In this document: one piece after another, positions 49,029 through 64,000 of the stretch
Layout: each line of letters starts with the position of its first letter
Numbering within the stretch: the first letter of the stretch is position 1
Source of the DNA: a virus
Virus record (IMG/VR): IMGVR_UViG_3300044712_000982
Location: 21,373-85,372 of that record
Strand: one strand, 5' to 3'
Length of the DNA stretch: 64,000 nucleotides
Program-made: the position numbers and the translations under genes
Notes under the pieces: model-generated
The model's input: only the letters and a program-made list of their open reading frames with translations
Databases searched by the model: none
What the model was told of the DNA's origin: nothing

Positions 49029-49182
49029 GCAAGGTTCCGTGCGAGCCGTCCGCCGACATCCGTCAGGCGGCATCAGCGATGTGGCAAATTTACGTCGCGT
49101 TGACCGGCGAGGGATTCACCGAGCGGCAGGCACTCATCATCATCGGGCAGATGCTCGCTGCGGGCACGAATCGGAGCAGCGA

Positions 49183-49934: not shown

Positions 49935-50146
49935 ATCGCGACGGTTTCAACCGTTACAACGGTTCCGACATATGCCCAGTGTCGGTGTCGCGAACCCACG
50001 ACGCGCGCCGTGACGGCACCTGCCGTTGGCGTGAACGCCGTTGCGCCTACCCAGTGGCCCGCCCGAAACCGGTACGCGTCGTCAGCGTGCTCGACGACGC
50101 GTACCGATACATGTGGGACCCGGACTACGGGCTCACTCCCTGACCG

Positions 50147-51280
50147 TCACTTCTTCGCATCGAGTCGCACCGGCATCATCAGGTACACGTACCCACCCAT
50201 CGGCGCACCGTCGCCATCCGCGGGCGTCAACGTGGCCGGATTCTTCGGCTCATTGAACGACAGCGTCGCCATCGAAGTCCCGACCGACGCCAACCCATCG
50301 AGCAGATATTGATGGTTGAACGCGATCGTCATCGACTCGCCGTTGTACGTGCAGTCCATGGCCTCGCTGGCGCGGGCGTCCTCGCTGCCGCTGGCCTCGA
50401 CGACAAGACCGTCGTCGCTGAACGACAGCCGGATCGGGGTCGAGCGCTCGGCGACCAGGGCCACCCGCTTCACAACCTCCGCCAGCTCGCCGACGACGAC
50501 CGTCGCGGTGGCGGCGAACGAGTCTGGGATGAGTCGACGAACCGGCGGGAATTCGCCGTCGATCAGCCGCGACGTGGTGCGCCGTGCGCCAGCCGCGAAC
50601 CCGATCATGCCCTCGCCGATGGTGCCGCGCGACAGCGCAACCCCGACCGTCCCGGCGCCACCGATCGTCTTCGCCATGCCCTCCAGCGTGCGCGCCGGAA
50701 TCAGCGCCGACATGCCGCATGCCGGGTCGTCGGGCGTCCACGGAATGTCGCACACGGCCAGCCGGAACCGGTCGGTGGCGAGCATCGTCAACGTGTCGCC
50801 GGACAACTCCAGCCGGACCCCGGCGAGGATCGGCAAGTTGTCGTCACGTCCAGCGGCGACGGCCGTACGTGCTACCGCCCAGGCGAACACGCCAGCGTCG
50901 ACGCTGCCGGCCGAACCTGGCATGGGTGGCAGTGCCGGGTAGTCCTCGACCGCCATCGTCGGGAGCGTGAACCGGCCCGACCCGCACACGATCTCGACCT
51001 GCGCGCCGACCGTCGAGATGTCGACCGGCTTGTTGGGCAGCACCTTGGCGATGTCGGCGATCAGCCTCCCCGACACGAGCACGGCGCCCGGCTCGGAGAC
51101 GTGCGCCGGGACCGTCGTCTCGTTCGACACTTCGAAGTCGAAGCCGCTCACGGTCAGGTGATCGCCGTCGGCGCGCAGCATCACACCAGCCAGGATCGGC
51201 AACTGCGTCCGGGTCGGAAGTGCCTTCGCCGTTGCGGTCACGGCCGAGGCCAGGTCGTCACGGCCAATACGGATCTTCAT
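50147..51280 (-). CDS. dnaN: DNA polymerase III beta sliding clamp
   Basis: LPILAGV, SGFDFEVS, MLATDRFRLA, LIDGEFP, IAFNHQYLLDG, YLMMPVR. Confidence 0.95.
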   Translation of the reverse strand: MKIRIGRDDLASAVTATAKALPTRTQLPILAGVMLRADGDHLTVSGFDFEVSNETTVPAHVSEPGAVLVSGRLIADIAKVLPNKPVDISTVGAQVEIVCGSGRFTLPTMAVEDYPALPPMPGSAGSVDAGVFAWAVARTAVAAGRDDNLPILAGVRLELSGDTLTMLATDRFRLAVCDIPWTPDDPACGMSALIPARTLEGMAKTIGGAGTVGVALSRGTIGEGMIGFAAGARRTTSRLIDGEFPPVRRLIPDSFAATATVVVGELAEVVKRVALVAERSTPIRLSFSDDGLVVEASGSEDARASEAMDCTYNGESMTIAFNHQYLLDGLASVGTSMATLSFNEPKNPATLTPADGDGAPMGGYVYLMMPVRLDAKK

Positions 51281-51531
51281 TCGATTCCCTCCAGTATCGC
51301 GTAGGCGACCGCGGCCACCTGGACTAGTTCTTCACGGAGCGCGTCCGGGTCGCAGTCGAGCGCGGCCCGTGCGACCTCCCCGCATTCCTCCGTCAATACG
51401 GCAACCTTCACCATTAGCGGCACGTCGGGGCTGGAGCAGTCCCCGTGGCCGTGCGCATGCTGGCGTCCCCACAGCCGACGTTGCCGCGCACGCTCGGCGG
51501 CAACGTCGGCTGTAATGTCGTCGAATTTCAC
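51277..51531 (-). CDS. MazG-like nucleotide pyrophosphohydrolase
   Basis: VLTEECGEVARA..LREELVQVAAVA. Confidence 0.8.
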   Translation of the reverse strand: MKFDDITADVAAERARQRRLWGRQHAHGHGDCSSPDVPLMVKVAVLTEECGEVARAALDCDPDALREELVQVAAVAYAILEGIE

Positions 51532-53501
51532 AGCTCGAACAGCCGCGGCTGCGACATCTCGTCGTCGAGACCGCGCAGCGTCTTGACTGCGGTCTCCCAG
51601 TAGGACGGCTTCAGTTCGATGCCGAGCGCGCGGCGTCCCCGCTTGACGGACACATACAGCTCGGATCCGATGCCGGCGAACGGCGTGAACACAGTCTCGC
51701 CCTGCCGTGAATACATCCGGACGCACCGGTCGATGAAATCCAACTGGAGAGGACAGTTGTGAACGACGGCGCCCTCCGCGACGAAAGAGGCGTCGTCCTC
51801 CACCTGAAGGTCCCATACCTCTGCGAATCCTGAGGGCTGCGAACGGCGCACCTTCTTCCATGCTCCGTCGGTGTCTATCCACCCAGACTGGCGGTATCCC
51901 TCACTGTTCCGAAAGGCGAAGATCCAGTCCTGGCGGGCAACGACCGACCGACCGTCGATCACGTGCTTGCGTTCTGGTCGGCCAGCGTAAACGCTCGCCA
52001 CCACGCCACGGGCACGCTGTGCCACCATGGCCATGCCCAGCAGGAGCGCCCGAGATACCGACGATGCCGTCCACCGGTCGTAGCGTCCGACGTAGTGACC
52101 ATCGGCCGACAGATATCCGGCCAACAGTGCCTCCGCTTTCGGCTGTGGCAACGTCAGAAGTTCCCCCGGCACTCGCTTTCGATGGGCACCCTCGCCGCAA
52201 CGGGCTAGCGTGGCGCGGAGGTCGGGTGACAGGTTCCTGAGGCTGACTTGGATGTCGGTGCCGGGGTCATGGGCCGCCCCTGCCTGGTGCCCCAGTCGCT
52301 CCGAAAGTTCGGCGAATTCACCCCGCGCGCACGACAGGATGAACTGACCCGTTCCGCCCCGTACGCCACTACGGCGATGAGCCGACGCTCGGTGTCCATC
52401 GCCCAGCCACCTACCAATGACCCAACACTCATGCTCGCTGAGTGGTGACTCTTCTATCGGAGGCAACGGAAGGTTGAGGTACGAACCCAGCGTTTCAGAT
52501 GCCGGAATCCACTCCGGCGCAGCAGACTGGGCTCGAGCCTTGGCATGAGGCCCAACACCCCGACGGGCCCACAGCATATGGTCGGCGGTGGTACGAAGAT
52601 CTGCAACCCCCTGGGCGCATGTACGAATCACCGGCTCAATGCCGTTGCACCGCTTCGCGGTTACCGCACGCCATCGGCCATGGTGGGTCAATACCTCGCC
52701 CCCCACCGGTACGGTCTCGATCGGCACGTACCCGTCCCGGGTAAGCACCAGCGATCCTTCGGCCAAGCAGATGTGCCTCTCATCCTCCGGATCGCGGCCG
52801 GCACGGACGTTGAGCGTGTTCGTCTCCTTGATGTCGGTCCATACCGGAGAGATGTGCTCACCGCCGAGCGCGGCACCCTCGCCACGGTCGAACCAGATCG
52901 GCGACGCCCACTCGATCCACTCATCGTTGGTGAAGTCCCCACCCTTCGCGTCGTGCGGGATCTTCGCCGCGTTGTCGCCGGGCTTCTTGAAAATCAGAAG
53001 GTAGTCGGCGAGTGCCGGGCGGATACCCATCGAATCGCGGTTCTTGGTCTGAAATGCGAGCGAATACGAATGCGTGCGGATACTCTGCGCCTGCGGGTCT
53101 TTCCAGATCGTAGCCTCCCCATAGAAGATCCATCCCTCATCCTGGAATGCCCGGATCACGTCGCCGCGGAAGTCGGTCAGTCCGATGTGCCCGTGGGTGA
53201 CCTTCGACGTCGTGAGCTGCTGAACGTGCACGCAGGCGTTGCGTCCCGGCTTCGTGATCCGCAGCTGCTCACGGATGATGAACCGGTAGTGGTCCAGGAA
53301 TTCCGTACGGGTGGACGAGTTGCCCAGGTCGCGGACGCTCGGCGAATAGACGAAGAGCGAAGCGAACGGGGGGCTACACACTGACAGGTCGACCGACTCA
53401 TCCGGAATCTCGGCCATGCGCTCGCACGAGTCGCCGAGCATGAGCCGCCACATGTCGCCGCATGCGTCGTCGGTCACGTATCCGTCGGTCTCGGTGGTCA
53501 C
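51528..53501 (-). CDS. DNA N6-adenine/N4-cytosine methyltransferase with intein
   Basis: LGDSCE, SVCSPPF, KPGRNACVH; after intein CPLQLDFIDRC, FTPFAGIGSE. Confidence 0.9.
   Translation of the reverse strand: MTTETDGYVTDDACGDMWRLMLGDSCERMAEIPDESVDLSVCSPPFASLFVYSPSVRDLGNSSTRTEFLDHYRFIIREQLRITKPGRNACVHVQQLTTSKVTHGHIGLTDFRGDVIRAFQDEGWIFYGEATIWKDPQAQSIRTHSYSLAFQTKNRDSMGIRPALADYLLIFKKPGDNAAKIPHDAKGGDFTNDEWIEWASPIWFDRGEGAALGGEHISPVWTDIKETNTLNVRAGRDPEDERHICLAEGSLVLTRDGYVPIETVPVGGEVLTHHGRWRAVTAKRCNGIEPVIRTCAQGVADLRTTADHMLWARRGVGPHAKARAQSAAPEWIPASETLGSYLNLPLPPIEESPLSEHECWVIGRWLGDGHRASAHRRSGVRGGTGQFILSCARGEFAELSERLGHQAGAAHDPGTDIQVSLRNLSPDLRATLARCGEGAHRKRVPGELLTLPQPKAEALLAGYLSADGHYVGRYDRWTASSVSRALLLGMAMVAQRARGVVASVYAGRPERKHVIDGRSVVARQDWIFAFRNSEGYRQSGWIDTDGAWKKVRRSQPSGFAEVWDLQVEDDASFVAEGAVVHNCPLQLDFIDRCVRMYSRQGETVFTPFAGIGSELYVSVKRGRRALGIELKPSYWETAVKTLRGLDDEMSQPRLFEL
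51756..52769 (-). mobile_element. intein (338 aa) with LAGLIDADG homing endonuclease
   Basis: C1-LAEGSLVLT, T.DH block B, GRWLGDG and LAGYLSADG, VWDLQVEDDASFVAEGAVVHN followed by Cys+1. Confidence 0.93.
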
Positions 53502-55213
53502 TGCGATTCTCCGATCAGCGTGTTGCGGGACTGCATGGCGGTGACGAGCGCTTCGATCATCTGTGCCGCGTCTGATTCTTTCCGTGCGACGTTTGCCGCA
53601 ATCTGCGATTCCAGCTCGGACAGCACGACGTGCACGTTGACGATGCGCGCCTGACCGTACCGGTAGCAGCGGCGAATGGCCTGGTAGTAAGACTCGTATG
53701 AGTCAGACAGTCCAACAAATGCCATCCTGGCGCAATGCTGCCAGTTCATTCCAAACGAATACATTCCTGGTTTTACTACCAGGATTCGGAACTTTCCTGC
53801 GCGCCATTCCTGGTCAATCTCGACGCGCCTACCGACGGGAGTACGGCCGTCGATTCCGCGACATTCGTCGCCGAGTGCTGATACTAGCGCGTCTTGTTCG
53901 TCATTCAATCCACACCAGATGACCCACTGGTCCCGGCACGCATGATGTACCGGTACAATGCCATCATCCGGAGCGGATCGTCCTGCAGGTGACCCATCGC
54001 CAGGTTGCATGGCTGACAAAGAACACCGCGGACCATGCCGGTCGTATGGTTGTGGTCGATGTGCAGCCGAACCGTCTGATCCACATGATGATTCGCCCCA
54101 CATGCCTGACATCCGAGATCGAGCATCATCTCGATCTCGTCCCGGCTCAATCCGTACTGCCACGCCCTCCGCTGTAGGGGTTGACGTTTGCGATACTCGG
54201 ATACTTGGCGCTTGATCTCCTCCCGGTGCTTCGCGTCCAGCGCGTAGCGTTCGCGCCGCAAAGCATTCCTCCGCTCGTTCAGTTCCGGAGTTCGCTCCCA
54301 TTTTTCCTTGTTGGCCAAATAGTAGGCCCTGCTGTACTCTCTGCGATCCGCAGTCACTAACTAATTGTACAGCCCTATCAACCCGCGCGCTTAGGGTTGA
54401 ACGACGCACTTTCGCGCGTCCCCCGACCCCTCCGAGGTCAGTGGCGAACAGTTGACCCTCCGCCTCGACTTCGACCGGGATCAACTCCGGAACGATGTTG
54501 AGTCCCGGCAGGTTGTAGCCGGTGTCCGGGTAGCCGACGTCGGACGGTCGGCGGAGAGCAATCGCCCACGTCGACATCCACCGGAACATCGGGCCTTTCG
54601 CGTGGCCTTTGAGTCGCCATCCGTCCGAGTCGTGGACGAAGTAGCTGGCCAACATTTCCACGCGGGGCATGACCCCGAGGAATTCGGCCTGACTAGTGAG
54701 TTCCTCCGGGTCGTTGGGGGCCGGCGTGGCGGTGCATGCGAGCCGGTACGGCACGTCACGGAAGTGGGTGATGAGTTTCGTGCGGGTCTTGCCGTCGGAC
54801 TGCTTGAGGATGCTGGCCTCGTCGAGACATACAGCACCGAACAGCGCGGGCGAAAAGTGGTCGATCATCTCATAGTTGGTGACCCACACCCCGGGCCCGG
54901 TTACGTCATCGCCAGATCGTACGTACCGCGCGGTTACGTCGACCTTGGCGGCCTCGCGGACGGTCTGCTGGCACACGGCCAGCGGTGCGACAATCAGTGA
55001 CGTGTCGGCCGACAGCCGGCACCATTCGATCTGCTGGATCGTCTTGCCGAGCCCCGTATCTTCCCACATCGCCGCGCGCCCGACCCTGACCGCCCATTTG
55101 ACGATCCTGGCCTGCCATGGGTGCAGCATTGGGTGAACGTCTGACACGTCAATGTCACGGCCGAGATGCGACGCGGATCGTACCTTGCGCGCGAGGAATT
55201 CGGCGTAGCTCAC
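53498..55213 (-). CDS. SNF2/SF2 helicase-like protein with an insertion of about 135 aa
   Basis: DTGLGKT, LDEASILK, LACTATPAPND, WCGLNDEQ, GMNWQHC, QAIRRCYRYGQ. Confidence 0.9.
   Translation of the reverse strand: MSYAEFLARKVRSASHLGRDIDVSDVHPMLHPWQARIVKWAVRVGRAAMWEDTGLGKTIQQIEWCRLSADTSLIVAPLAVCQQTVREAAKVDVTARYVRSGDDVTGPGVWVTNYEMIDHFSPALFGAVCLDEASILKQSDGKTRTKLITHFRDVPYRLACTATPAPNDPEELTSQAEFLGVMPRVEMLASYFVHDSDGWRLKGHAKGPMFRWMSTWAIALRRPSDVGYPDTGYNLPGLNIVPELIPVEVEAEGQLFATDLGGVGGRAKVRRSTLSARVDRAVQLVSDCGSQRVQQGLLFGQQGKMGANSGTERAEECFAARTLRAGREAPGGDQAPSIRVSQTSTPTAEGVAVRIEPGRDRDDARSRMSGMWGESSCGSDGSAAHRPQPYDRHGPRCSLSAMQPGDGSPAGRSAPDDGIVPVHHACRDQWVIWCGLNDEQDALVSALGDECRGIDGRTPVGRRVEIDQEWRAGKFRILVVKPGMYSFGMNWQHCARMAFVGLSDSYESYYQAIRRCYRYGQARIVNVHVVLSELESQIAANVARKESDAAQMIEALVTAMQSRNTLIGESQ
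53905..54357 (-). mobile_element. endonuclease VII-family homing endonuclease nested in the +1 frame of the helicase
   Basis: YGLS..CQACG..LHIDHNHTTGMVRGVLCQPCNLAMGHLQDD. Confidence 0.88.
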
Positions 55214-55374
55214 TGGGCACGCTCGCGGTCAACGTCGAGCGACTGCTCGACGAGCACGATCAGTGCCGCGTTACGGCTCAGTCCTCGTCGCTTGGCGTAT
55301 TCGCCGAGTCTGGCATGTAGCTCATGTGGGAGCCGGTAGGTGCGTACGACCGGCTCCATCTGCTTGCTTGGCAT
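55210..55374 (-). CDS. Arc/RHH-family repressor (leaderless)
   Basis: VRTYRLPHELHARLGEYAKRRGLSRNAALIVLVE; TATGGT 6 nt upstream of ATG. Confidence 0.8.
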   Translation of the reverse strand: MPSKQMEPVVRTYRLPHELHARLGEYAKRRGLSRNAALIVLVEQSLDVDRERAQ

Positions 55375-55516
55375 GCCAGAACCATACCACACTGATACCG
55401 CGCCGGTTCACGTACGGTGCAAAACTGGTGGCGCGTCACGGTGACCTTGGCCATGTAGCCAGCCACGCCACCTGAGATGATGGCCGCACGGACGAGCCGA
55501 AAACGCCAGAAGCCGG

Positions 55517-55780
55517 CTAGCGCCAGGCGGTCTCTGGCTCGTCGAGCGGCACCGCCGAGAACGGATCCACCGTCTTGGCCTGTTCGGGCTCCACGGGCGC
55601 ACTGACGGCTTTCTGTGCGGCGCGTGCGAGGATGGCAGTGCGTTCGGACTGGGCTCGGAGCCGTTCGAGGACTGCATCTTGCCGAGCCCGTCGCTCTTGG
55701 GCGTCCTGCCTCACTTTGGCCCGGCGGATCATGGCGGCGTATTCGGGGTCACATTGGGAGAGGATCACGACGTCTTCCAT
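55517..55780 (-). CDS. small hypothetical protein
   Basis: CACAAT 6 nt upstream of ATG. Confidence 0.45.
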   Translation of the reverse strand: MEDVVILSQCDPEYAAMIRRAKVRQDAQERRARQDAVLERLRAQSERTAILARAAQKAVSAPVEPEQAKTVDPFSAVPLDEPETAWR

Positions 55781-55839
55781 GCGCCCATTGTGCCTGATGA
55801 TTCCCGCCGGGCGCTAATTCACTCAAGCGTGATTGCGAT

Positions 55840-55869
55840 TTGCCATTCTGTGGAATGGTGGAGTGTAAT
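55840..55869 (+). promoter_or_regulatory. promoter of lsr2
   Basis: TTGCCA-18 nt-TGTAAT. Confidence 0.5.
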
Positions 55870-55876
55870 AGCCGAC

Positions 55877-56233
55877 ATGGCGAAGCGAGTAATCCACATG
55901 CTGGTTGATGACCTCGACGGCGGGGACGCGAACGAGACGGTGCGGTTTGCGCTGGATGGCGCCCAGTACGACATTGACCTGTCGGAGAAGAACGCGGCGA
56001 CCCTGCGCGAAGTGTTGGCGCCATGGGTTGCGGCCGGCACGAAGGTCGCACGCGGGGGCGTCGTGAGTCGCATCGCCGACAGCGGAAAGCGCCGGCCGAC
56101 CGGCCTCAACCGGGAGCAGAACAAGGTAATCCGGGAGTGGGCGCAGTCGAAGGGCATCGTGCTGTCGGATCGCGGCCGTATCGCCAAGGAGATCGTTGCC
56201 CGATACAACGCTGAGGCCGGCGTCGCTGCCTGA
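55877..56233 (+). CDS. lsr2: Lsr2 nucleoid-associated protein / xenogeneic silencer
   Basis: LVDDLDGG.A.ETVRFALDG..Y.IDLS..NA; IREWA..G..LSDRGRI. Confidence 0.96.
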   Translation: MAKRVIHMLVDDLDGGDANETVRFALDGAQYDIDLSEKNAATLREVLAPWVAAGTKVARGGVVSRIADSGKRRPTGLNREQNKVIREWAQSKGIVLSDRGRIAKEIVARYNAEAGVAA

Positions 56234-56248
56234 GCGTTTCGATCCTTC

Positions 56249-56285
56249 CGGGGTCTCGGCGTGTGCCGGGGCCCCGTTTCGTTGT
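56249..56285 (+). terminator. intrinsic terminator after lsr2
   Basis: CGGGGTCTCGGC-GTGT-GCCGGGGCCCCG then TTTCGTTGT. Confidence 0.7.
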
Positions 56286-56474
56286 GTGTGTCGCTGGCCA
56301 CACATGGGGTGTTTGCGGCATTTCGGGCGCGCTATCCACCGTTCGGGGGCATTGAGTCGAGCCGTTGCCCGTGACACGCCGAGCCCACCGGCTGTTAGTT
56401 GGCTGGGAGCCTCGCATGTTCGGCGTGTGTCTATCCTCGGAGGGTTCGTCACGAACACCCCGGAAAGGATAGAT

Positions 56475-57152
56475 ATGCGTATCTCTACCGTGCTCGGTGG
56501 CATCGCCGCCGGACTCGCACTCACCGCAGGACTCGCCGCACCCGCCGCCGCTACCGGTGAGGCCGTCGGCGCAGAGTGCACCACCGCTGGCACCGAAGCC
56601 AAGTCAGGCGACGTCACCCTGATCTGTGACCAGTCCACGAAGAAGTGGACCGTCAAGGTCGACGTATCCAAGACCGAGACCACCACCAACGCCACCCAGG
56701 GCCAGGGCGCCAACACGGACCAGAAGGCCAAGGGCGACGGCACCAACCAGCAATCCTGCAACCAGCAGATGCAGGCCGGACAGACCATCGCCGGCAACCA
56801 GTACTGCCTGATCGCCAAGGGCGACATCAACCTCAACATCGCAGCCGCGAAGCCGGCCGACTGCAACGGCGCCACCTGCAACGGACTCCCCGCCGAGGTG
56901 CAGGTCCAGTGCTCAGCCGGGCAGACGGCCACGATCGAGGCCGCGGGTGGGGCGAAGGCCACCTACTCGTGCGCGAAGGCCGCAAACGGCACGACCACGA
57001 TGAAGAAGGCCGCCGCCGCGTCGTCTGGCGATAGCCTTCCGGTGACGGGCGCGAAGTCGCTTATCATCACGGCGGTCGGCTTCACCGTGCTTGCGATCGG
57101 CGCGGCGCTGTTCTTGGTGGCGCGTCGCCGTCGGGTGAGCTTCACCGCGTAG
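56475..57152 (+). CDS. sortase-anchored (LPXTG) secreted surface protein
   Basis: Signal peptide ending APAAA, eight Cys, LPVTG, TM segment, RRRR. Confidence 0.85.
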   Translation: MRISTVLGGIAAGLALTAGLAAPAAATGEAVGAECTTAGTEAKSGDVTLICDQSTKKWTVKVDVSKTETTTNATQGQGANTDQKAKGDGTNQQSCNQQMQAGQTIAGNQYCLIAKGDINLNIAAAKPADCNGATCNGLPAEVQVQCSAGQTATIEAAGGAKATYSCAKAANGTTTMKKAAAASSGDSLPVTGAKSLIITAVGFTVLAIGAALFLVARRRRVSFTA

Positions 57153-57275
57153 TCTGAGGTCGACCAGCTCGTGTACTGATCACCGCATAGCGTCGCCCCC
57201 GGCCATGGGAACAGGTCGGGGGCGTCGTGTTTACATGATGGCAAGGGAGATGTAAGGCGCGATTACACGATCGAG

Positions 57276-57644
57276 CTACTTGCCGAGCCACGGCCGGAGC
57301 GTGCGCGCACGATCGACCCCAGCATCCCGCGCAACCTCAACCTCCGACCGGCCCTTGGCGATCTCGGCGATACACGCTGCCTTGAGCCGCTGCTCGACAT
57401 CGGCGAGCGTTTGCCTTGCGCGGATCCGCTCATCCCGGAGGTCGGTGAGGCTGATCGCGCCCTCCGGTGGCACGATCCGGACCGTGTAGTGCCCGAATTC
57501 GGTCAGCCGCTCGTACTGCCTGTCGGCTTCGTCGGCGGTGAGCGCATAGGCGTGAGCGTATTCGCCCTGCCGGATGGTTCCGTGTACCGACCATCGTGGG
57601 CCGCGCGCGGTGATGAGCCGGTGGAGTGACGTCGTCCCGATCAT
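57276..57644 (-). CDS. protein with C-terminal HTH
   Basis: GRSEVEVARDAGVDR..LRPWLGK. Confidence 0.6.
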   Translation of the reverse strand: MIGTTSLHRLITARGPRWSVHGTIRQGEYAHAYALTADEADRQYERLTEFGHYTVRIVPPEGAISLTDLRDERIRARQTLADVEQRLKAACIAEIAKGRSEVEVARDAGVDRARTLRPWLGK

Positions 57645-58000
57645 TTCTGGTCCTCCTGCGTGGTGGTTTCGCTGGCCTTGACGGCCTCGCCGATGCCGTC
57701 GCGGATCCAGCCGGGCACGCTGTCGGCGTATCGGCCGGTGCGGTAGGCGGTAATGTGGATTTGGTTGTCGGCGTCGGACCACCAGACCTTGGTGACGACT
57801 CCGAGGATGTCGCGGGCGCGGGCGTTGCTGATCGACTCGCCGTCGAGGGTGGCGCCGCAGATGTTGCCGGTGTTGTAGCGGGAGACTTCGAGGCCGATGA
57901 GTTCGGGCCAGCTGTTGAAGTAGACGCGGACCTCGCCGGTGCTGGGGTGGGTCCAGGCGTTGCCGCCGATGCGGATCATCTGGTCTTTGGTGTAGGTCAT
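57641..58000 (-). CDS. hypothetical phage protein
   Basis: GEVRVYFN, YNTGNICGATLDGESISN, KVWW. Confidence 0.6.
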   Translation of the reverse strand: MTYTKDQMIRIGGNAWTHPSTGEVRVYFNSWPELIGLEVSRYNTGNICGATLDGESISNARARDILGVVTKVWWSDADNQIHITAYRTGRYADSVPGWIRDGIGEAVKASETTTQEDQK

Positions 58001-58022
58001 CGCCCTGGTCCTCTCGCTCGCT

Positions 58023-58065
58023 TCTGTAGACCACTCTACACGACACATGTTGAGTGGTCTACAGA
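58023..58065. promoter_or_regulatory. 14-bp perfect inverted repeat overlapping a minus-strand promoter
   Basis: TCTGTAGACCACTC-15 nt-GAGTGGTCTACAGA. Confidence 0.65.
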
Positions 58066-58078
58066 ACCCACGAACGAG

Positions 58079-58621
58079 TCAACCCACCAGCGCCAGCACA
58101 GACACCACCCCAGCCGCCACCAACACCGGGCGCACCAGCCACAACTCAACCCGACACCCCCGCCGCCCGGTCTTGAACCGCAATGGCACCCACACCCCGA
58201 CCGGCCGGCGACACCACGGCCCGAACAGCGGTGCACCAGCGTCTGTTAGGCAATCTCCGAGCACGTGGACAACATGCCCAGCACCGACCGCCAGGCCCAC
58301 CCACCACAGCGAAGGCTCGACCAGCGCCGCCAGCGCGCCCACCGCGAGCCCGAGCATCACGCCGACGATCCCCCAATGCGTCGGCCCGCGATGCCCGCAC
58401 CCGAGCCGGACCCCGGCCGACACGAGCCGCGACACCCACCCCAGCGACCGCGACGCCATCGACTGCGGATGGTCGAGGTCAGGCAGAAGCGCGCCAACCC
58501 CGCACAGCACGGCACCAGCGACCGTGGGGACCAGTCCGGGCGCGTGACCCACCTGCGCTAGCCCGGCGCACCCGGCCGTCCACACCACGGCGCCGGAAAG
58601 TCGGTGCGTTACGCCCATCAT
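58079..58621 (-). CDS. membrane-bound metal-dependent hydrolase (YdjM-like)
   Basis: THRLSG, GALLPDLDHP, HRGPTH, HVLGDCLT..G.PLF. Confidence 0.85.
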   Translation of the reverse strand: MMGVTHRLSGAVVWTAGCAGLAQVGHAPGLVPTVAGAVLCGVGALLPDLDHPQSMASRSLGWVSRLVSAGVRLGCGHRGPTHWGIVGVMLGLAVGALAALVEPSLWWVGLAVGAGHVVHVLGDCLTDAGAPLFGPWCRRPVGVWVPLRFKTGRRGCRVELWLVRPVLVAAGVVSVLALVG

Positions 58622-58757
58622 CGCAACGCACCTGCGACGAGCGCGGCGCCGACCATCAGGCCGATGGCGGAGGGCCACCACGCGGCGACCCGCAGCCACA
58701 GCGCCGGCCGGGGCACGATGGCGATGACCTCTGCGGTCACGACGGGTACGAGTTGGC

Positions 58758-60653
58758 TCACGACGTCACCTGCCAGGGGGTTCCGCTGCCGCTTGGCTGC
58801 CTGATGTCTCCGGACTCGCGCAGCTCGGCGAGTACGGCACGGAGTTGCGCAGGCCTGACCGGGCAGTCGGGCCGATCGAGGAGGGCATTCGCTGTCTGCG
58901 GTGAGATCCGTAGCCGTGCGCGAATCCACTCCTTTGTCGAGGTGGGTTTCTGCGGCGGCGGGCTCGGGTGGACCCCGAATGCGGAGAGCCGGTCGGCGAC
59001 AGCGGCGGCTGCGCTTCCGAACGTTTCGCGAGGCGCGTCCGCTGCCGCTCGCCGCTGTTGCCCGCTGGTCGAGGGTTGCTCGGCTTGCTCGGGCTGGTCG
59101 ACGATCCACCTGATGGGGCGGCGGACGTGCCGCGCGGAGGCTGCGGCTTCGTCGAGGAACGGGACGCGTCCGAGCATGCCGATCCGTTCGGCTGCGCGGG
59201 AGTAGCCGCTTCCGGCGGTCTTCAGTTTCTTGCCGCCGATCTCGATCTCGATGGGGATGGAGAATGGGTCGCCGATGAAGTCGTCGGGGAGCACGGTGGT
59301 GCCACTGCCGCGGTTGGACAGTCGGAGGATGAGGGCGTTTCCGGCGACGGCGGCGTCACGGATCCGGATTGATCCGCCGAGTGATTTCATTTGCGGGAGT
59401 TGGGTGGCGAGGATGACGGAGACGCCGGTTTTGCGGCAGATCGCCATGATCTCTTCGAGCATCTCGACGATCTGACGGTCTTCGCTGGACATCGTGAGCA
59501 CCAGGTGGCATTCGTCGATGATGACGGCGAGTTGCCTGATCCCGAGCGCAATGATTTTCGGGTCCGCCTGGTCGTAGGCGTCGATACCTTCAGCCGCCAG
59601 CCGGGACGATCGTTCCATAACCTCGGCGTGGAGCCTGCGGATTAGGTCTTTCGTCGCCGTGACCCCGTTGTGGTATTCGCCGGCAGTGTCCCGCCATTTC
59701 GGCAGTGACTGGCCGTTTTGCGGGTCGCAGACGACGACCATCACACCGGCGTGGAGGAGGTTGTCGATGATGACGCCGAGTGCGCGGCTCTTCCCGGCGT
59801 TCGACGAGCCGACGATGAGCCCGTTGAGGGTTCCAGATCCTTCCTGCTGGTGGATCCAGGTGCACGGGGTGCCGTCGGCGTAGGTGATGATCTGGAAGCG
59901 TCCGTCGCGGTAGGTCGGGCCGGGGTAGCGAACGGGCAGTTGGATGTATGAGCGCTCGACGATGACGAGCTGGAGTTTCGCGGCGCGTCCGGTGCGTCGC
60001 CAACCAACTGAGCCTTCGGGGAGGTCGAGGCAGGTTTCGACGGCGGAGCCGGTCTTGACGACCTCCCCGATTTTCGTTCCTGGCAGGAGCCGGATTGTGG
60101 CTTCGATGACACCGGCGCGGACGGTCTTCGCCACGGTGAGCAGCGTATTTTTGCAGACCCCATGGCCGATGACTTCGGTGCGCCACCTCTGCACCCATTC
60201 GTCCGTCCGGTCGACCTCCGGCTCGGGGTCGGGCTCGACCACGTCACGTAGGTGACGCCACCACGGCCAGCCCAGGAGCGGGGTGACGATCGCCAGGATC
60301 GGAATTGAGGGGCCGTGGGTGAGCGGATCGGCCAGCAGCGCCCACAGTCCGAGCGTCCCGGTGATCACGGCTCGGTAGCAGCGAATCCATCCCGAGTGGG
60401 TGCGCCACCCGGCGGCGATGAGCACGGCGACCGCCACGGTGCCCCACTCCCACCAGCCGGACAGGTCGAGCCACCCGGAGGCGACGGCGGCGAGCCACGC
60501 TGTGGCGGCCCAGTACGCCGGCAGCATGCGCCGCCACGTGTGCTTGAGGATCCAGCCAGCCGCGATCAGCACCGCGGCGCCTGCCGTCGCGGATCCGGTG
60601 ACTGCCGCCCCGGCTGCCCGCTGTTTGATTCCTGCCGTCGCCATTTTGTTCAC
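58758..60653 (-). CDS. traB: FtsK/SpoIIIE-family TraB-like DNA translocase
   Basis: N-terminal TM helices, GSSNAGKS, VIIDECH, RKTGVSVILATQ, C-terminal winged-helix-like tail. Confidence 0.8.
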   Translation of the reverse strand: MNKMATAGIKQRAAGAAVTGSATAGAAVLIAAGWILKHTWRRMLPAYWAATAWLAAVASGWLDLSGWWEWGTVAVAVLIAAGWRTHSGWIRCYRAVITGTLGLWALLADPLTHGPSIPILAIVTPLLGWPWWRHLRDVVEPDPEPEVDRTDEWVQRWRTEVIGHGVCKNTLLTVAKTVRAGVIEATIRLLPGTKIGEVVKTGSAVETCLDLPEGSVGWRRTGRAAKLQLVIVERSYIQLPVRYPGPTYRDGRFQIITYADGTPCTWIHQQEGSGTLNGLIVGSSNAGKSRALGVIIDNLLHAGVMVVVCDPQNGQSLPKWRDTAGEYHNGVTATKDLIRRLHAEVMERSSRLAAEGIDAYDQADPKIIALGIRQLAVIIDECHLVLTMSSEDRQIVEMLEEIMAICRKTGVSVILATQLPQMKSLGGSIRIRDAAVAGNALILRLSNRGSGTTVLPDDFIGDPFSIPIEIEIGGKKLKTAGSGYSRAAERIGMLGRVPFLDEAAASARHVRRPIRWIVDQPEQAEQPSTSGQQRRAAADAPRETFGSAAAAVADRLSAFGVHPSPPPQKPTSTKEWIRARLRISPQTANALLDRPDCPVRPAQLRAVLAELRESGDIRQPSGSGTPWQVTS

Positions 60654-60704
60654 CTATCTGTGCGGCGGGGGGCGACCGGCGTGGTCGCCCCCCGCGTCGC
60701 GTGG

Positions 60705-61118
60705 TCAGCCTTCGAGGACTTCCCGGTCGGCGAGGTTCCCGGCGGCGTCGGCCGCGTCCGCCACCGCCCCGTCGCGGGCGTTGAAGTCGCTGGTGGCGGC
60801 GGTGAACGACTCGGTTGCCGCCTGCAACTTGGCTTCGGCGGACCGGGCTGATTCGGCGGCGGCGTGGTAGTCGGCGGCTGCTGACCGTGCCTGCGTGGCC
60901 GCGTCGCGGAGGTGCTCGACGGTCGAGGCGGCCATCTTCGCTGACTCGTAGTTGTCGGCGGCCTGCTCGAAGGTCGCGGCGGCGGCCTCGGCGGCCTCGG
61001 CGTTCTCTTCGAGCTGGGCGGCGGATGCGCCGGCGTTGGTGGCGGATTCCTCGGACCATTCGGCGCCTTGGGCGAATGCGGCGCGGATGGATTCGGGTCC
61101 TGCTGCCTCGGTGTTCAT
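60705..61118 (-). CDS. Ala-rich helical protein upstream of TraB (TraA-like position)
   Basis: Coiled-coil-like, 137 aa. Confidence 0.5.
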   Translation of the reverse strand: MNTEAAGPESIRAAFAQGAEWSEESATNAGASAAQLEENAEAAEAAAATFEQAADNYESAKMAASTVEHLRDAATQARSAAADYHAAAESARSAEAKLQAATESFTAATSDFNARDGAVADAADAAGNLADREVLEG

Positions 61119-61717
61119 GCTCCACTACCTTCGTTGATCTTGGGTGGTACGGATTCCAGTTCCGGGATGGGTCTCAGCTGCTGCGGACTGCCGCTCCGCG
61201 CGGGCCTCTTCGTCCTTCGGGCCGGCGACGGACGGCGCGTCGGCTCGGGCATCGTGTCTGGGTCTTCGTCGGTGTCGGTGTGGTGGATGTCGGTGTGTTG
61301 CTTCGACGCGTCGTCGGCGTTGCGTTTGAGCTGGTATGGACGGGATCGCCAGTCGCACAGGTCGCAGTTGCCGTACCAGTGCTTTGCCTGCCGGTCGTAT
61401 TCGATGGCGACGGGGCCTCGCGTGCGGCGTTCGCGGTAGATGGCGCGGCGCTCCTCTCGGCGTTGGCGGCGCTGCTCCCACCGTTCGGGGCGGCGTTCGC
61501 GGGCGGCGTCAGAGGCGTCCTCGATCAGGTCGGCGAAGTACTTGCCGATCGCCGACCTGGTGCGCTTCGGCTCCCTGCCGGCAGCCCGGTCGACGCGCTC
61601 GCGCTTTTCGCGTTCCTGCCTGCGCGGCGATGTCTTCCCGCGGGCTGCGGCGACGACGTCCTCGAAGATCAGGGCGATGACCTTCAGTGTGATGAGTACG
61701 AGTACGACGTCGACCAT
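61115..61717 (-). CDS. hypothetical membrane-anchored basic protein
   Basis: N-terminal TM, Arg-rich, CDLC. Confidence 0.5.
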   Translation of the reverse strand: MVDVVLVLITLKVIALIFEDVVAAARGKTSPRRQEREKRERVDRAAGREPKRTRSAIGKYFADLIEDASDAARERRPERWEQRRQRREERRAIYRERRTRGPVAIEYDRQAKHWYGNCDLCDWRSRPYQLKRNADDASKQHTDIHHTDTDEDPDTMPEPTRRPSPARRTKRPARSGSPQQLRPIPELESVPPKINEGSGA

Positions 61718-61719
61718 GG

Positions 61720-62100
61720 CTACCTCCTCTTGTTGCTGGCCTTGACGGCCCGCTCATTGATCGTGTGCGCGACGACAAGGCACACGGCTGCGATGGTCAT
61801 CGTTGAGGTGGTGGCGAGCCCGTAGCCGACTTGCTCGCCGACGAAGTCCCACAGGTCCGAGAAGCGCGACTGGATCCAGTCGGAGATCGGGCCGGGGATG
61901 TAGACGAGCAGGGTCGGCATGACGAGGGCGCCGACGATGGCGTCCTGGTTTGGGGTCTTGTCCTTGGCGATGTCGACGACGGCCTTCACGAGCAGGCCGA
62001 TCGTGAAGACGATGAGGACCATGGTGGTGGCGTCTGCGGCGAGGCCAGTCCCGGCCACGATCGCGAGGATGAACGCGCACCACGCGAACAGTTTCATCAT
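61720..62100 (-). CDS. multi-TM Spd-like membrane protein
   Basis: Three to four hydrophobic helices in the transfer module. Confidence 0.55.
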   Translation of the reverse strand: MMKLFAWCAFILAIVAGTGLAADATTMVLIVFTIGLLVKAVVDIAKDKTPNQDAIVGALVMPTLLVYIPGPISDWIQSRFSDLWDFVGEQVGYGLATTSTMTIAAVCLVVAHTINERAVKASNKRR

Positions 62101-62126
62101 GGTAGATCTCCTTTCCGGGAGTGGTG

Positions 62127-62504
62127 TCAGGCCGTCAGGTAGGTGATGATCAGCGCGACGCTCACGGCGAGCGTGCGGAGCGGATGGGTGAGGATCCACG
62201 AGACGAGGTGGAGCATCGCCCGTGGGATGAGCGCGAGGGCTGCCCAGGCGGTCAGCCAGATCTCCACCGCGGTCGCGTTGCCGTCGCGGATGGTGGTGGC
62301 GTCGGTGACGAGCTTGCAGAGCGGGTCCGGGCTGTCGGTCCAGACGGAGCGGATCGATGCGAGGTCGTCGACTGTGGCGCCGTAGACGTCACGGACAGTG
62401 ATTCTGGTACTGGAATCCGAACCAGAATCCGGCGTGCTGGTTTGTGCTGGTTTGGGATGATTCTGATCTGGGCGCGGATACGGAGAAGGGCGCCTACGGG
62501 CCAT
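62127..62504 (-). CDS. membrane protein of the transfer module
   Basis: GAGG RBS; W..WAAL..HLVSWILTHPLR TM end. Confidence 0.55.
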   Translation of the reverse strand: MARRRPSPYPRPDQNHPKPAQTSTPDSGSDSSTRITVRDVYGATVDDLASIRSVWTDSPDPLCKLVTDATTIRDGNATAVEIWLTAWAALALIPRAMLHLVSWILTHPLRTLAVSVALIITYLTA

Positions 62505-62601
62505 AGAAATGACCTCGGCCCCACCCGGACTGGAATCCACCCGGCCATGTGACTGTCCGTAGTCATCGTCACGTGCTGGCTGCGCACCCATCACTCCCAC
62601 C

Positions 62602-62724
62602 TCATCCCGTCACGTACGCCACGATCGCTACGACGACCAGCACGAAACCGCACGTGACGATCACGGTTGCGATCGCGCGCAGCGGGTTCGATCCGTACTG
62701 GTGCGTCCCGTTGTGCTGGTCCAT
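62602..62724 (-). CDS. 40-aa TM peptide (not in the ORF track)
   Basis: MDQHNGTHQYGSNPLRAIATVIVTCGFVLVVVAIVAYVTG. Confidence 0.45.
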   Translation of the reverse strand: MDQHNGTHQYGSNPLRAIATVIVTCGFVLVVVAIVAYVTG

Positions 62725-62855
62725 CACGTCGACCCGCCGATCAGCAGCCCGCACGCGAGACCAGCGACGATCGCGACGGTCACGGCGAGGGCGAGGATCG
62801 GGCTACGGGGAACCGACGCGAACGTCTCGCCAAGCACCCGACGTGCGTAGATCAT
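62724..62855 (-). CDS. 43-aa TM peptide
   Basis: GGAG RBS; ILALAVTVAIVAGLACGLLI. Confidence 0.45.
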   Translation of the reverse strand: MIYARRVLGETFASVPRSPILALAVTVAIVAGLACGLLIGGST

Positions 62856-62869
62856 GACGTTTCTCCTGG

Positions 62870-63307
62870 TCAGTGGCTTGTGAGGTGCCTGCGCCGGTTG
62901 CGCATGGCCGAGGCGATTCGGCGGCACGTCCATGTGATGGCCGGGTGCGCGATGGTCGCGAGTGCGGCACCGGCCGTGACTGCCGCGAGTTGCCCCGACC
63001 CGAGGTGCCATCCGTGGACGCCAACGACGTACCAGCCGATACCGCAGGTCACGGCCGCGATGGTCGCCGCGGATGGGGCATCGGCCCACGCGTCGGCGAG
63101 CCTGGAACGGATGGGGTGGGCTGCGCGCTGCGGGTCGGGCCACGGATCGCCGGTCTTCCATGCGTAGAGGGCGTCGTCGACCTCGTCCATTGCCTCGGAG
63201 AGCAGGCTCCGGAGGTGGTCGACGGTCGCTTCGTCGATGTGCTCGTTGGCGGCAATCGCGGTGTCGACGGCGATGATGGCGTCGAGTGCGCTGGTTGGGT
63301 CGTTCAT
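62870..63307 (-). CDS. protein with two C-terminal TM helices
   Basis: GGGAG RBS; MNDPTSALDAII start. Confidence 0.5.
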   Translation of the reverse strand: MNDPTSALDAIIAVDTAIAANEHIDEATVDHLRSLLSEAMDEVDDALYAWKTGDPWPDPQRAAHPIRSRLADAWADAPSAATIAAVTCGIGWYVVGVHGWHLGSGQLAAVTAGAALATIAHPAITWTCRRIASAMRNRRRHLTSH

Positions 63308-63542
63308 GACGTTGCTCCCTGCGTGAGCCGGTCGAGTGCGTCCGCCACCTCGGTGACGGTGGTTGCTGCCGCGTCTGCGGCGTCCATGGCGGTTGCCGTA
63401 GTCGCCGTTGCGGGCGGCTCGGAACGTGTGGTGCATGGTCGTGGATGCGCCGCGGAGTTCCTCGGCGAGCGCGCGGATCGCGGCCACTTCGGCGGGGGTC
63501 ATGACCAGTACCTGCCGTATGCGAGCACGAGTTCGACGATGG

Positions 63543-64000
63543 TCATCGGGTCTCCTCAGGCTGGGCGGCTTCTGCAATTGCGCGGTCGATGAGGTCTTGC
63601 ACCGCTGGGTAGCCGATACCGACGCCGTTGCGGGCGTTGCGGATGGCGTCGTAGACGGCGCGTTGTCCGGGTGCGTTGCGGCCTTTGTTGCGGGCGGTTG
63701 CAACGAGTGGCCGGACGATGTTCATGAGGTCGTCGTCGCCGGTTGCAACTGGATCTGCAACGTGGTCGACGGCTGGTGTTGCAACGGGCTCGGCCGGGCT
63801 GGCTGTAGGCGCCTCTGTGGGTGTTGCAACTGGCCCTGGGCGCGGCGTTGCAACTGTCGCGGCTGGTGCCGTTGCGGGCTTCCGTTGCGGTCGCCGGCGG
63901 CTCTTCGTCCGGGTGGCCTTTCGGCTGGTGGGGCGTGTTGCAGCCGGTGTTGCAACCAGTTCGGCGGCGGGTGTTGCAACGGCCGGGGCGACGTCTGCAA
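63543..64000 (-). CDS. Spd-like protein C terminus (VAT repeats plus terminal HTH), 5' truncated
   Basis: Frame from 63998 is open: repeated VATP, then PGQRAVYDAIR..GIGYPAVQDLI. Confidence 0.6.
   Translation of the reverse strand, partial: ADVAPAVATPAAELVATPAATRPTSRKATRTKSRRRPQRKPATAPAATVATPRPGPVATPTEAPTASPAEPVATPAVDHVADPVATGDDDLMNIVRPLVATARNKGRNAPGQRAVYDAIRNARNGVGIGYPAVQDLIDRAIAEAAQPEETR
63697..63980. repeat. seven copies of the 8-bp palindrome GTTGCAAC
   Basis: Starts at 63697, 63742, 63778, 63823, 63847, 63949, 63973, plus near-copies. Confidence 0.9.

Follow-up and report, generated by a model that had tools for sequence, protein, structure and literature searches.

A putative plasmid-type translocation module in the genome of a tailed phage

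A complete tailed-phage genome carries a gene module that is homologous and syntenic with a module of actinomycete plasmids, comprising a membrane-anchored FtsK-family ATPase, a DUF2637/SpdB-like helix-turn-helix (HTH) protein, and several small membrane proteins. We put at roughly 50 % the probability that this is a plasmid-type dsDNA translocation module, long resident in one tailed-phage lineage of Micromonosporaceae, that moves the phage genome. The module may carry phage DNA between cells independently of virus particles, in which case the phage genome would reach neighboring compartments without virions or receptors. Reading the element as a phage-AICE or phage-plasmid hybrid is plausible.

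The module within the phage genome

The window, which is the whole 64,000-nucleotide stretch analyzed here, corresponds to bases 21373-85372 of IMGVR_UViG_3300044712_000982, a virus record of IMG/VR that consists of one 106,285-bp contig, bears direct terminal repeats, and has a CheckV completeness of 100 %. The genome encodes TerL, portal, tail tube, tape measure, and minor tail proteins, along with 32 tRNAs, and the sequence-only reading of a complete tailed phage is confirmed by these genes and by the terminal repeats. The sequence comes solely from a rhizosphere metagenome, where it occurs in two runs that may represent one and the same data set. A 46.5-kb Logan contig covers window positions 46000-64000 with zero differences and even depth, no flanking repeats longer than 15 bp were found around the module, and the module differs little in composition from the genome average (GC 67.5 vs 65.7 %, GC3 81.5 vs 78.8 %), with all of its ORFs intact. 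The module is thus embedded inside the phage genome rather than part of an adjacent, separate element, in agreement with the earlier remark that no junction or att scar is visible. Its co-orientation with phage DNA-metabolism genes also holds, as the block at 50147-55374, which encodes a sliding clamp, an intein-bearing methylase, and a SNF2 helicase, is likewise on the minus strand. The best named homologues of the sliding clamp are from Micromonosporaceae (62-65 % identity), and the host is therefore probably mycelial.

Profiles for Phage_integrase, Resolvase, and ParA-type (AAA_31) proteins had no match across the complete phage genome, and ParB_N matched only weakly. Therefore, neither the AICE state nor the plasmid state proposed from the window is established. 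A second DnaB/RecA-like gene with ACCTGTCC iterons, ~8 kb from the module, could be a plasmid-type replicon. With 32 tRNAs and neither integrase nor ParA found, the phage may be purely lytic, a life that would leave little time for transfer.

All module genes are on the minus strand. A gene for a YdjM-family inner-membrane hydrolase (58079..58699; Pfam YdjM E 1.5e-25, 90 bits) lies directly downstream of the ATPase gene, the same place that it occupies in the phage-type loci L006 and L031; the sequence-only reading gave it no name. The ATPase gene (P0072, 58758..60653) encodes a 631-aa TraB/Tra-like, membrane-anchored FtsK-family protein, assigned by profile, fold, and hhalign matches. Upstream of it, as had been described from the sequence, a helical protein and a run of small membrane proteins occupy 60705-63502 on the same strand. 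An Ala-rich helical protein of 137 aa (60705..61118; tblastn 39-48 % identity in 16 loci, 91 % in L006) and a 200-aa protein with a TM helix at its N terminus and a region rich in Arg and Glu (61115..61717; homology and TM prediction) correspond to the C-terminal and N-terminal parts, respectively, of a 430-668-aa protein encoded ahead of the ATPase on plasmids of Micromonosporaceae. The fused gene of the plasmids is split in this phage and in L006, and remains a single gene in L007 and L031. Next are a 126-aa protein with four predicted TM segments (61720..62100), an extra gene confined to phage-type loci and present in this phage and L007 (71 % identity), and a 154-aa protein with a hydrophobic C terminus (62127..62591; tblastn 37-49 % identity in 16 loci, 83 % in L006), which is kept in every homologous plasmid and phage locus. 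Two single-TM ORFs of 40 and 43 aa (62602..62855) are tentative gene calls from a gene caller and hydropathy, and a 210-aa protein with a hydrophobic C-terminal region (62870..63502; sequence and TM prediction) has no family match. Altogether, 61115-63502 accounts for six small proteins, and TM segments are predicted in most of them. The window ends within the SpdB-like/DUF2637-like gene, the 3′ part of which is at 63543..64000; the gene extends to window-equivalent 64892 (genome 84915-86264) and encodes 449 aa. Small HTH genes of non-GntR types are found at the operon start.

The FtsK-family ATPase and its relation to TraB

The ATPase is a TM-anchored FtsK protein with a winged-helix-like end, as the sequence-only reading had it. 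Residues 1-137 form the TM region, a multi-pass N terminus of four to five hydrophobic helices (helices 4-137), residues 150-520 form the motor, with Walker A GSSNAGKS and Walker B IIDE, and residues 570-631 form a C-terminal end of three helices plus a strand. The protein therefore combines an FtsK/HerA-type motor with an N-terminal membrane region and a C-terminal winged helix. Pfam FtsK_SpoIIIE matches it with E 1.3e-4, and its best curated NCBIfam match is plasmid_TraB, with E 2.3e-14. Foldseek returned TcpA and the FtsK motor as top PDB matches (E about 1e-12), and in AFDB Swiss-Prot the top fold match is pIJ101 Tra, nearly full length, with E 7.8e-19; the fold alignments to Tra and FtsK reach residue 631. 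In hhalign, pIJ101 Tra is matched with a probability of 94 % and E 9e-8, and the nearest Atlas clusters are named 'plasmid transfer protein TraB' (score 0.98). However, the ATPase scores 52.8 bits against NF041214, for which the equivalog cut-off is 800, and it was rejected as a curated TraB on that basis. Among its homologues, the L007 copy scores 38 bits and the L006, L031, pVMKU, and Streptomyces copies have no match. The TraB identity proposed earlier agrees with the best fold match but falls far short of the curated cut-off. A role as a type IV secretion system (T4SS) coupling protein (VirD4/TraG/TcpA) that works with a VirB4, a mating-pair channel, and a relaxase of the same element is not supported either, with VirD4, TraG, and TraD models at ≤15 bits and no candidate for VirB4 or a large relaxase among the phage ORFs of at least 400 aa.

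The ATPase resembles pIJ101 Tra and pSVH1 TraB in size (about 620-770 aa), in its membrane N terminus, FtsK-type motor, and C-terminal winged helix, and in the position of its gene beside small membrane 'spread' genes. In contrast to these proteins, with which it shares about 15-28 % identity in the motor only, it is under the NF041214 cut-off, and no match to a GntR-type TraR, the kil-kor partner, was found among the scanned neighbors of its gene. A further difference concerns DNA recognition. The winged helix hardly differs between this phage and L006, whereas the repeat arrays of the two elements differ in motif, and no TRS-like repeat or motif was found that the loci share. The classic TraB-clt logic is therefore not reproduced, the winged helix is probably not the specificity reader of the array, and the view of the array as a TraB winged-helix site is not supported.

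The SpdB-like protein and the RTTGCAAC array

The SpdB-like gene lies 3 kb upstream of the ATPase gene within one strand block, a tra/spd operon position, and encodes four TM helices, a helical domain, a disordered linker, and a C-terminal three-helix HTH. In an AF2 model, the four TM helices are long (pLDDT 80-93) and the C terminus forms a bundle of three helices. With a Pfam set lacking SpdB_N and HTH_SpdB_C, no match was obtained for the phage protein, which is under the DUF2637 threshold. Its homologues in the loci L010 and L018 pass that threshold, with 29.6 and 32.9 bits vs 22.8, and match the phage protein with E 1e-13. Ten of its 18 top matches among AFDB clusters are named DUF2637, and its nearest Atlas clusters carry DUF2637, SpdB_N, and HTH_SpdB_C. 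No sequence similarity to pIJ101 SpdB is detectable. SpdB2/DUF2637 homologues occur in phages phiC31 and VWB. The phage protein shares with SpdB2/DUF2637 proteins the four TM helices, the C-terminal HTH, and a gene upstream of the translocase, but differs from them in the array of sites within its own coding sequence and in its sub-threshold DUF2637 score. SpdB2 has been reported to bind DNA non-specifically (PMC4447253).

The SpdB-like gene contains 11 copies of the octamer RTTGCAAC, written in rare codons. Seven GTTGCAAC are inside the window (63697..64000, annotated without strand) and four ATTGCAAC lie beyond its end, up to window-equivalent 64175, and there are five TTGCAG/A variants as well. 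The strand-matches number 18, compared with 0.59 expected in 20 kb, and 12 of the genome's 16 TTGCAA sequences fall in the array. The tripeptide [VI]-A-T is written NTT-GCA in 11 of 11 cases in the array gene and in none of 41 in all other genes. Every homologous locus with an intact SpdB-like gene has an array, and its motif varies with the lineage: the plasmid motif is GCGGAAAY or CGGAAGC, as opposed to RTTGCAAC in this phage. Codon use in the plasmid arrays is similarly constrained, with AE[IT] always encoded by GCG GAA AYN while AEA and AEQ use GAG. The array is under DNA-level selection in both phage and plasmids. Its motif tracks the HTH type of the SpdB-like protein, not the TraB-like winged helix, and we infer that the SpdB-like protein is the putative array reader. 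A parallel exists in SpdA2 of pIJ101, which binds a palindrome within its own gene, the site constraining the peptide sequence (PMC4170104). As an Spd-operon DNA-binding protein, SpdA2 resembles the putatively DNA-binding phage protein in having sites inside its own coding region, but it is small and soluble with 2-3 copies of a 12-bp palindrome, and the phage protein is a 449-aa membrane protein with 8-bp sites in 11-16 copies.

Relatives and possible functions of the module

The order SpdB-like protein, small proteins, TM/helical protein, ATPase is common to 16 Micromonosporaceae plasmid-type loci and three phage-like contigs, and phage-borne copies of the module occur in at least four phage-like contigs. 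The plasmids that share the gene order are 58-77 kb and belong to Micromonosporaceae, and the same architecture is found on a Streptomyces linear plasmid. In pVMKU-type plasmids (NC_015409, CP054924, CP108881, and others) the ATPase is 41-50 % identical over its full length, the order is SpdB-like, 154-aa, TM/helical, ATPase, and the SpdB-like gene contains a motif array. The next gene in these plasmids is a true FtsK, as opposed to YdjM in the phages, and unlike the phage they carry ParAB and a VirB4/VirD4/relaxase T4SS. The phage-borne ATPases form their own clade, with support of 100/100 and internal identity down to 56 %. In L007 the module adjoins integrase, holin, endolysin, and tail genes, and in L031 a DnaB-like gene, an Acb2/Tad1-like gene, and YdjM. 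Because the clade is well supported and divergent, and because of these neighboring phage genes, the comparison indicates that the phage clade is old and points to long retention under selection. The ATPase family was found in 5 of 301 sampled Micromonosporaceae genomes, and its closest homologues, which lie on T4SS plasmids, bear the annotation T4SS conjugative DNA transfer family protein. The earlier description of an actinomycete conjugation module thus stands as regards homology and synteny with the plasmid module. Its premise of single-protein TraB transfer is not established even in the plasmids, since those of the nearest homologues carry a full T4SS and a second FtsK, and this coexistence counts against a transfer function.

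In the translocation reading, the module genes are all co-transcribed from a divergent promoter region past the window end. The SpdB-like HTH would bind the RTTGCAAC array in its own gene and so tether the phage genome to the membrane, and an ATPase hexamer could then pump the double-stranded genome through a channel to which the small membrane proteins contribute, either through the cross-walls of a hypha or from one hypha to another in contact with it. The same parts could instead serve segregation or maintenance without transfer to new cells, which we consider unlikely: the array would be centromere-like, the SpdB-like protein its membrane reader, and as septa close the FtsK-like pump would clear genomes from them or deliver genomes across, letting compartments and spores inherit an extrachromosomal prophage or replicating genome. 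[quoted passage not shown] However, lysogeny of this phage is only putative, the homologous plasmids already have ParAB, and L007 combines the module with an integrase, which argues that the module is not tied to extrachromosomal life.

It is improbable that the module acts instead in exclusion, competition, or host takeover, with the ATPase complex blocking or expelling incoming plasmid or phage DNA, or perturbing septa or envelope in a kil-like function of tra genes, so that the phage gains without moving its own genome. Consistent with this possibility, unregulated traB is toxic (Kil-Kor; PMC4447253), FtsK-like genes with no assigned role are present in several Streptomyces phages (PMC13587820; phrog_1358), and anti-defence genes occur at or near the module in relatives (Acb2/Tad1-like in L031, Acb5 in L035). 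But it leaves unexplained both why the element's own DNA has 11-16 cis sites that are under DNA-level selection and why arrays with lineage-specific motifs are conserved across plasmids and phages. Helper-dependent mobilization, in which the ATPase is a coupling-protein-like adaptor to the T4SS of co-resident pVMKU-type plasmids, is suggested by the annotation and plasmid location of the closest homologues and by TcpA, a T4SS coupling protein, as top PDB fold match. We regard it as very improbable: those plasmids have their own VirD4-like coupling protein, the VirD4, TraG, and TraD scores are negligible, all phage ORFs of at least 400 aa are otherwise assigned, leaving no candidate for VirB4 or a large relaxase, and the family is so sparse among sampled genomes. 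A decaying passenger, or a misassembly that attached a separate element to the phage, is hardly credible. The metagenome-only origin, from what may be one data set, and the slightly elevated GC of the module could point that way, but the junctions are spanned by one contig at even depth with zero differences, the genome has terminal repeats and 100 % completeness with all ORFs intact, the module likewise lies among phage genes in L006, L007, and L031, and the phage copies form their own clade with an array under selection.

A phage with plasmid-type transfer genes is not unprecedented, as pZL12 and PhiNon1 illustrate. [quoted passage not shown] These elements, which were discovered as plasmids of cultured strains, encode ParAB, integrases, or both (PMC4487206; PMC5431353), unlike this 106-kb phage with 32 tRNAs, in which ParA and integrase were not found. 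The phage portal had no match in the Streptomyces and Nonomuraea plasmid records, PhiNon1 included. Nonomuraea PhiNon1 has the same architecture: next to its lysis and tail genes lie a DUF2637 gene, several small genes, and an FtsK-like gene encoding 654 aa. The ATPase is only 24 % identical to its PhiNon1 counterpart.

The transfer-type module within the phage genome

The window is 64 kb of a single 106,285-bp contig (bases 21373–85372). IMG/VR lists this contig as viral and notes direct terminal repeats, and CheckV puts its completeness at 100%. Both contig ends consist of a 7-bp tandem repeat, (GGTGCTC)n, with long heptamer runs in direct orientation at 1–120 of L001 and 11100–11285 of L004, two stretches of the same contig. 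The terminal repeat by which the record counts as complete is thus a microsatellite-like array, and it may simply mark the break of a circular or concatemeric assembly. The sequence occurs in two rhizosphere metagenome runs and, in each, one 46.5-kb Logan contig spans 46000–64000 with zero differences and even depth; the two runs are maybe one data set and are not counted as independent support. Joints in the read alignment had sides of 20–21 bases that came from other organisms and were disregarded.

Gene calling with a self-trained codon model gave 167 genes in the phage genome. The sequence-only reading of the DNA as a tailed phage is borne out by a large terminase (Terminase_6C), portal, Phage_tube_2 tail tube, tape-measure protein, and minor tail proteins. 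Replication-type genes encode DnaB with a DnaC-like loader, a sliding clamp, and an SNF2 helicase. Other phage-typical genes include an N6/N4 DNA methylase split by an intein that shows both Hint and LAGLIDADG signatures (51528–53501, minus strand), the counterpart of which in the phage relative L035 has 319 residues and no intein, and a single 901-aa open reading frame that fuses a C5 cytosine methylase to the 7-deazaguanine DNA transglycosylase DpdA (2890–5595, plus strand). Outside the window, a gene in the early region of the phage (L001 9046–10650, plus strand) encodes 534 residues that include a TROVE (Ro60-like) domain, and an array of 32 tRNA genes, serving most amino acids, lies at L004 2436–5558 (genome ~97.4–100.6 kb, plus strand). 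Arrays of this kind are unusual in temperate elements, a hint that the phage may be lytic or have a broad host range.

All of the module features described from the sequence alone are present, on the minus strand. The ATPase gene (58758–60653, minus strand) encodes 631 residues, with several Trp/Ala-rich hydrophobic helices in residues 1–137, a Walker A motif GSSNAGKS, a Walker B motif IIDE, and a C-terminal helix-helix-helix-strand unit. Upstream of it on the same strand are genes for a helical protein of 137 residues, a TM/charged protein of 200 residues, a 126-aa protein with four TM helices, and a 154-aa protein, followed by two tiny TM open reading frames, a 210-aa protein, and the 449-aa SpdB-like protein, the gene for which crosses the window end. 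A gene for a YdjM-family membrane hydrolase lies downstream of the ATPase. ARAGORN called a tRNA-Ala(GGC) at 61431–61504 (plus strand), antisense to the 200-aa gene, which is probably spurious, as it has no Rfam tRNA match at gathering score. The stretch that separates the replication block from the module has genes for an Lsr2-like DNA-binding protein (55679–56233, plus strand) and an LPXTG cell-wall-anchored protein (56475–57152, plus strand), both kept beside the module in L035 and in L006, another phage-type locus. The reported lack of an att scar also holds, with no repeat flanking the module longer than 15 bp and none above chance, and the GC and GC3 of the module are near those of the remaining phage genome.

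The proposal that the DNA is a phage-AICE or phage-plasmid hybrid is plausible, but neither a tyrosine or serine recombinase nor a ParA-type ATPase was found in the phage genome, and ParB_N gave only a weak match. The genome has a second DnaB-N/RecA-like (AAA_25) gene. Just upstream of this AAA_25 gene, a gap contains at least seven copies of ACCTGTCC/GGACAGGT, several arranged as ACCTGTCCnGGACAGGT palindromes (L003 14620–14773, genome 94620–94773, outside the window), forming a candidate iteron origin. An analogous cluster of ACCTCAC adjoins the DnaB/AAA_25 gene of the phage-type locus L031. The best named homologues of the clamp all belong to Micromonosporaceae (Dactylosporangium, Virgisporangium, and Planosporangium; 62–65% identity), which makes a mycelial species of this family the most likely host. 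A search of Micromonosporaceae genomes with the portal gave a single match, at 46%, on a MAG contig of 3.5 kb; the genome that contains it has no ATPase match.

A phage-borne ATPase clade and its plasmid relatives

By sequence the ATPase is only modestly supported: it scores below the gathering threshold of the Pfam FtsK_SpoIIIE model, and its best curated NCBIfam model is plasmid_TraB (E = 2.3e-14). Profile matches in the PDB are to TcpA and FtsK, and an AF2 model (pLDDT 73.5) resembles the motors of both in fold (E ~1e-12). The top match among Swiss-Prot models, pIJ101 Tra, covers residues 49–631; next come FtsK proteins, with alignments that extend through the FtsK gamma domain. Over the motor, a 30-sequence profile of the ATPase aligns to pIJ101 Tra at a probability of 94%. 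The ESM-Atlas clusters closest to the protein bear the name 'plasmid transfer protein TraB', and full-length fold relatives are present in BFVD. The earlier assignment as a TraB/FtsK ATPase is thus correct in that the protein has a Tra/TraB-like build and a homologous motor, but with a score of 52.8 bits, where the cut-off is 800, it is not a curated TraB and instead belongs to a separate clade.

In a tree of five phage-clade proteins and 25 plasmid or bacterial copies, the ATPases of this phage, L006 (84% identity), a 2.9-kb contig (71%), L031 (56%), and L007 (56%) form one clade with support of 100/100, divided from the others by a long branch. L006 is a mosaic relative of the phage, with 81–97% nucleotide identity within shared blocks. 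L007, a contig of 76 kb, encodes an integrase, a holin, an endolysin, and a tail protein that falls in one PHROG with its counterpart in this phage. On L031, the DnaB/AAA_25 gene is accompanied by an Acb2/Tad1-like gene, the module, and YdjM. YdjM, and not FtsK, is the gene next after the ATPase in three of the phage-type loci: this phage, L006, and L031. The module is a stable component of these phages, and its occurrence in a phage-only clade among the phage genes of L006, L007, and L031 makes it very unlikely that it belongs to an adjacent, separate element, as the sequence-only reading had allowed. Near the module in L031 is a sponge-like anti-defence protein, an Acb2/Tad1 hairpin (3398–3622); another, Acb5, adjoins the clamp gene in L035 (6910–7335). 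L006 and L035 are ~94% identical, but the 4-kb SNF2 helicase/methylase/clamp block is missing from L006 (L006 13082–13434 compared with L035 2426–6485); this block behaves as a mobile cassette in this phage cluster. GenBank phages offered no close DNA or protein relative of the region or of its ATPase, and no close relative of the ATPase of PhiNon1, a published Nonomuraea plasmid-phage (PMC5431353). Scanning IMG/VR with the ATPase protein and the 30-sequence alignment yielded no relatives.

ATPase homologues at 41–50% identity were found only in Micromonosporaceae, on plasmids of 58–77 kb or contigs of similar size, and in five of 301 sampled genomes of the family. In pVMKU and its relatives, an SpdB-like gene, a 154-aa gene, a gene for a 430–668-aa TM/helical protein, and the ATPase occur in the same order as in the phage, with a true FtsK (369 bits to the FtsK model) directly after the ATPase. 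These plasmids also encode a separate T4SS, with VirD4-like, VirB4-like, and SCO6880-family proteins, MobC/relaxase, and an M23 peptidase. The Micromonospora plasmids pVMKU (NC_015409) and CP108881 each have both DNA-translocation systems, the VirB4/VirD4/relaxase T4SS and the SpdB-like/ATPase/FtsK module. Ahead of the latter are genes for a sigma factor, Lsr2, and a GGDEF protein, and a Pycsar effector gene is nearby. On plasmids the module may be a spread system beside the T4SS. Micromonospora T4SS plasmids are flagged here as carrying a second, uncharacterised DNA-translocation module. The same architecture, more diverged, is found on a Streptomyces linear plasmid and in PhiNon1, where it lies beside lysis and tail genes.

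An octamer array inside the SpdB-like gene

In its AF2 model, the SpdB-like protein (449 aa) combines four long TM helices with a helical domain, a disordered linker, and a three-helix bundle at the C-terminus. Ten of its 18 top AFDB cluster matches are named DUF2637, and its Atlas neighbours carry DUF2637, SpdB_N, and HTH_SpdB_C. Homologues in loci L010 and L018 exceed the DUF2637 threshold, while the phage protein itself falls below it. No similarity of the protein to pIJ101 SpdB was detectable, and the family profile gave no significant match to pIJ101 SpdB or to the DUF2637 protein of PhiNon1.

The 3' half of the gene contains 11 RTTGCAAC sites and five TTGCAG/A variants, and 12 of the 16 TTGCAA sequences in the genome fall there; in 20 kb, the octamer has 18 strand-matches against 0.59 expected by chance. 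The sites share one reading frame and encode [Val/Ile]-Ala-Thr. This tripeptide begins with NTT-GCA in 11/11 cases in the array and in 0/41 cases elsewhere in the phage (30,484 codons), where GCA, GTT, and ATT each account for only 11–14% of their codon family. Selection is thus shown to act on the DNA and not the peptide. An array occupies the same place in every homologous locus with an intact SpdB-like gene, with a motif that varies: CGTTGCA in L007, CGGAAGCAG in L006, ACGGACAY in L031, CGGAAGC in three plasmid-type loci, CGGAAAT in L020, and GCGGAAAY in pVMKU and ten others. The plasmids invariably encode AE[IT] as GCG GAA AYN, whereas their AEA and AEQ mostly use GAG, and the arrays there are also DNA-level features.

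One candidate reader of the array is the ATPase, with the array as its TraB clt. The winged helix of the ATPase (ALLDRPDCPV) is nearly invariant and essentially the same in this phage and L006 despite their unrelated motifs, which argues against this assignment. A search for a repeat common to all loci, as a TRS for the conserved winged helix, returned only GC-rich background words. The C-terminal HTH of the SpdB-like protein, in contrast, changes along with the motif class, and the SpdB-like genes of this phage and L006 are non-homologous although their ATPases are 84% identical. Since covariation of motif and HTH is confounded by descent, we infer only that the SpdB-like HTH may read the array. 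With the array inside the gene, array and protein travel as one cassette, an arrangement that fits the precedent of SpdA2 of pIJ101, which binds a palindrome within its own gene (PMC4170104). The result provides a directly testable idea about DNA choice, in which a membrane-bound HTH protein and its array appear to move together, apart from the motor.

Possible functions of the module

Our preferred reading, to which we assign a probability of about 0.5, is that the module is a Tra/Spd-like DNA translocation apparatus. In this process, the array and its membrane-bound reader would hold the phage genome at the membrane, and the FtsK-like hexamer would pump it through cross-walls or hyphal contacts. 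The same idea was raised by Thoma et al. for SpdB2 homologues in phiC31 and VWB (PMC4447253). The main rival is a role in segregation or maintenance, which is favoured by the absence of ParA and integrase from the phage and by the phenotype of SpdA2-sps; we consider it clearly less likely than translocation. Exclusion or host takeover appears improbable, and mobilisation by a T4SS helper slightly more so. That the module is a passenger or the product of misassembly is the least credible explanation.

A fuller version of the translocation reading is more tentative, and we think it somewhat doubtful as a whole: a large, tRNA-rich, possibly lytic phage would push its genome through cross-walls or contacts with a plasmid-derived FtsK-like pump, with the array read by the membrane-anchored SpdB-like HTH rather than by the winged helix of the translocase, the reader in the Streptomyces TraB-clt system, as a swappable 'address label plus reader' cassette common to Micromonosporaceae phages and plasmids. 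If true, a bacterial virus would thereby pass from cell to cell without virions. Movement of DNA between compartments or hyphae would give the phage lineage a second, receptor-free infection route that evades surface defences, would alter the view of phage spread and plaque containment in multicellular actinomycetes, and would let phage genomes travel by the path that antibiotic-producing bacteria use for conjugation.

The combination of a phage with tra function is not new. As described in papers that cite the original work, pZL12/phiZL12 of Streptomyces combines a lytic phage cycle with conjugal transfer that requires tra and the two genes beside it (Zhong et al, 2010, cited in PMC3583192, PMC4487206, and PMC5431353). 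PhiNon1, too, has the module. FtsK-like genes have also been recorded in several Streptomyces phages (PMC13587820). What is new is a distinct, phage-only ATPase clade in large phages without ParA, and in this phage also without an integrase, as part of a module common to Micromonosporaceae T4SS plasmids, together with lineage-specific octamer arrays within the SpdB-like gene that are uncoupled from the winged helix of the translocase.
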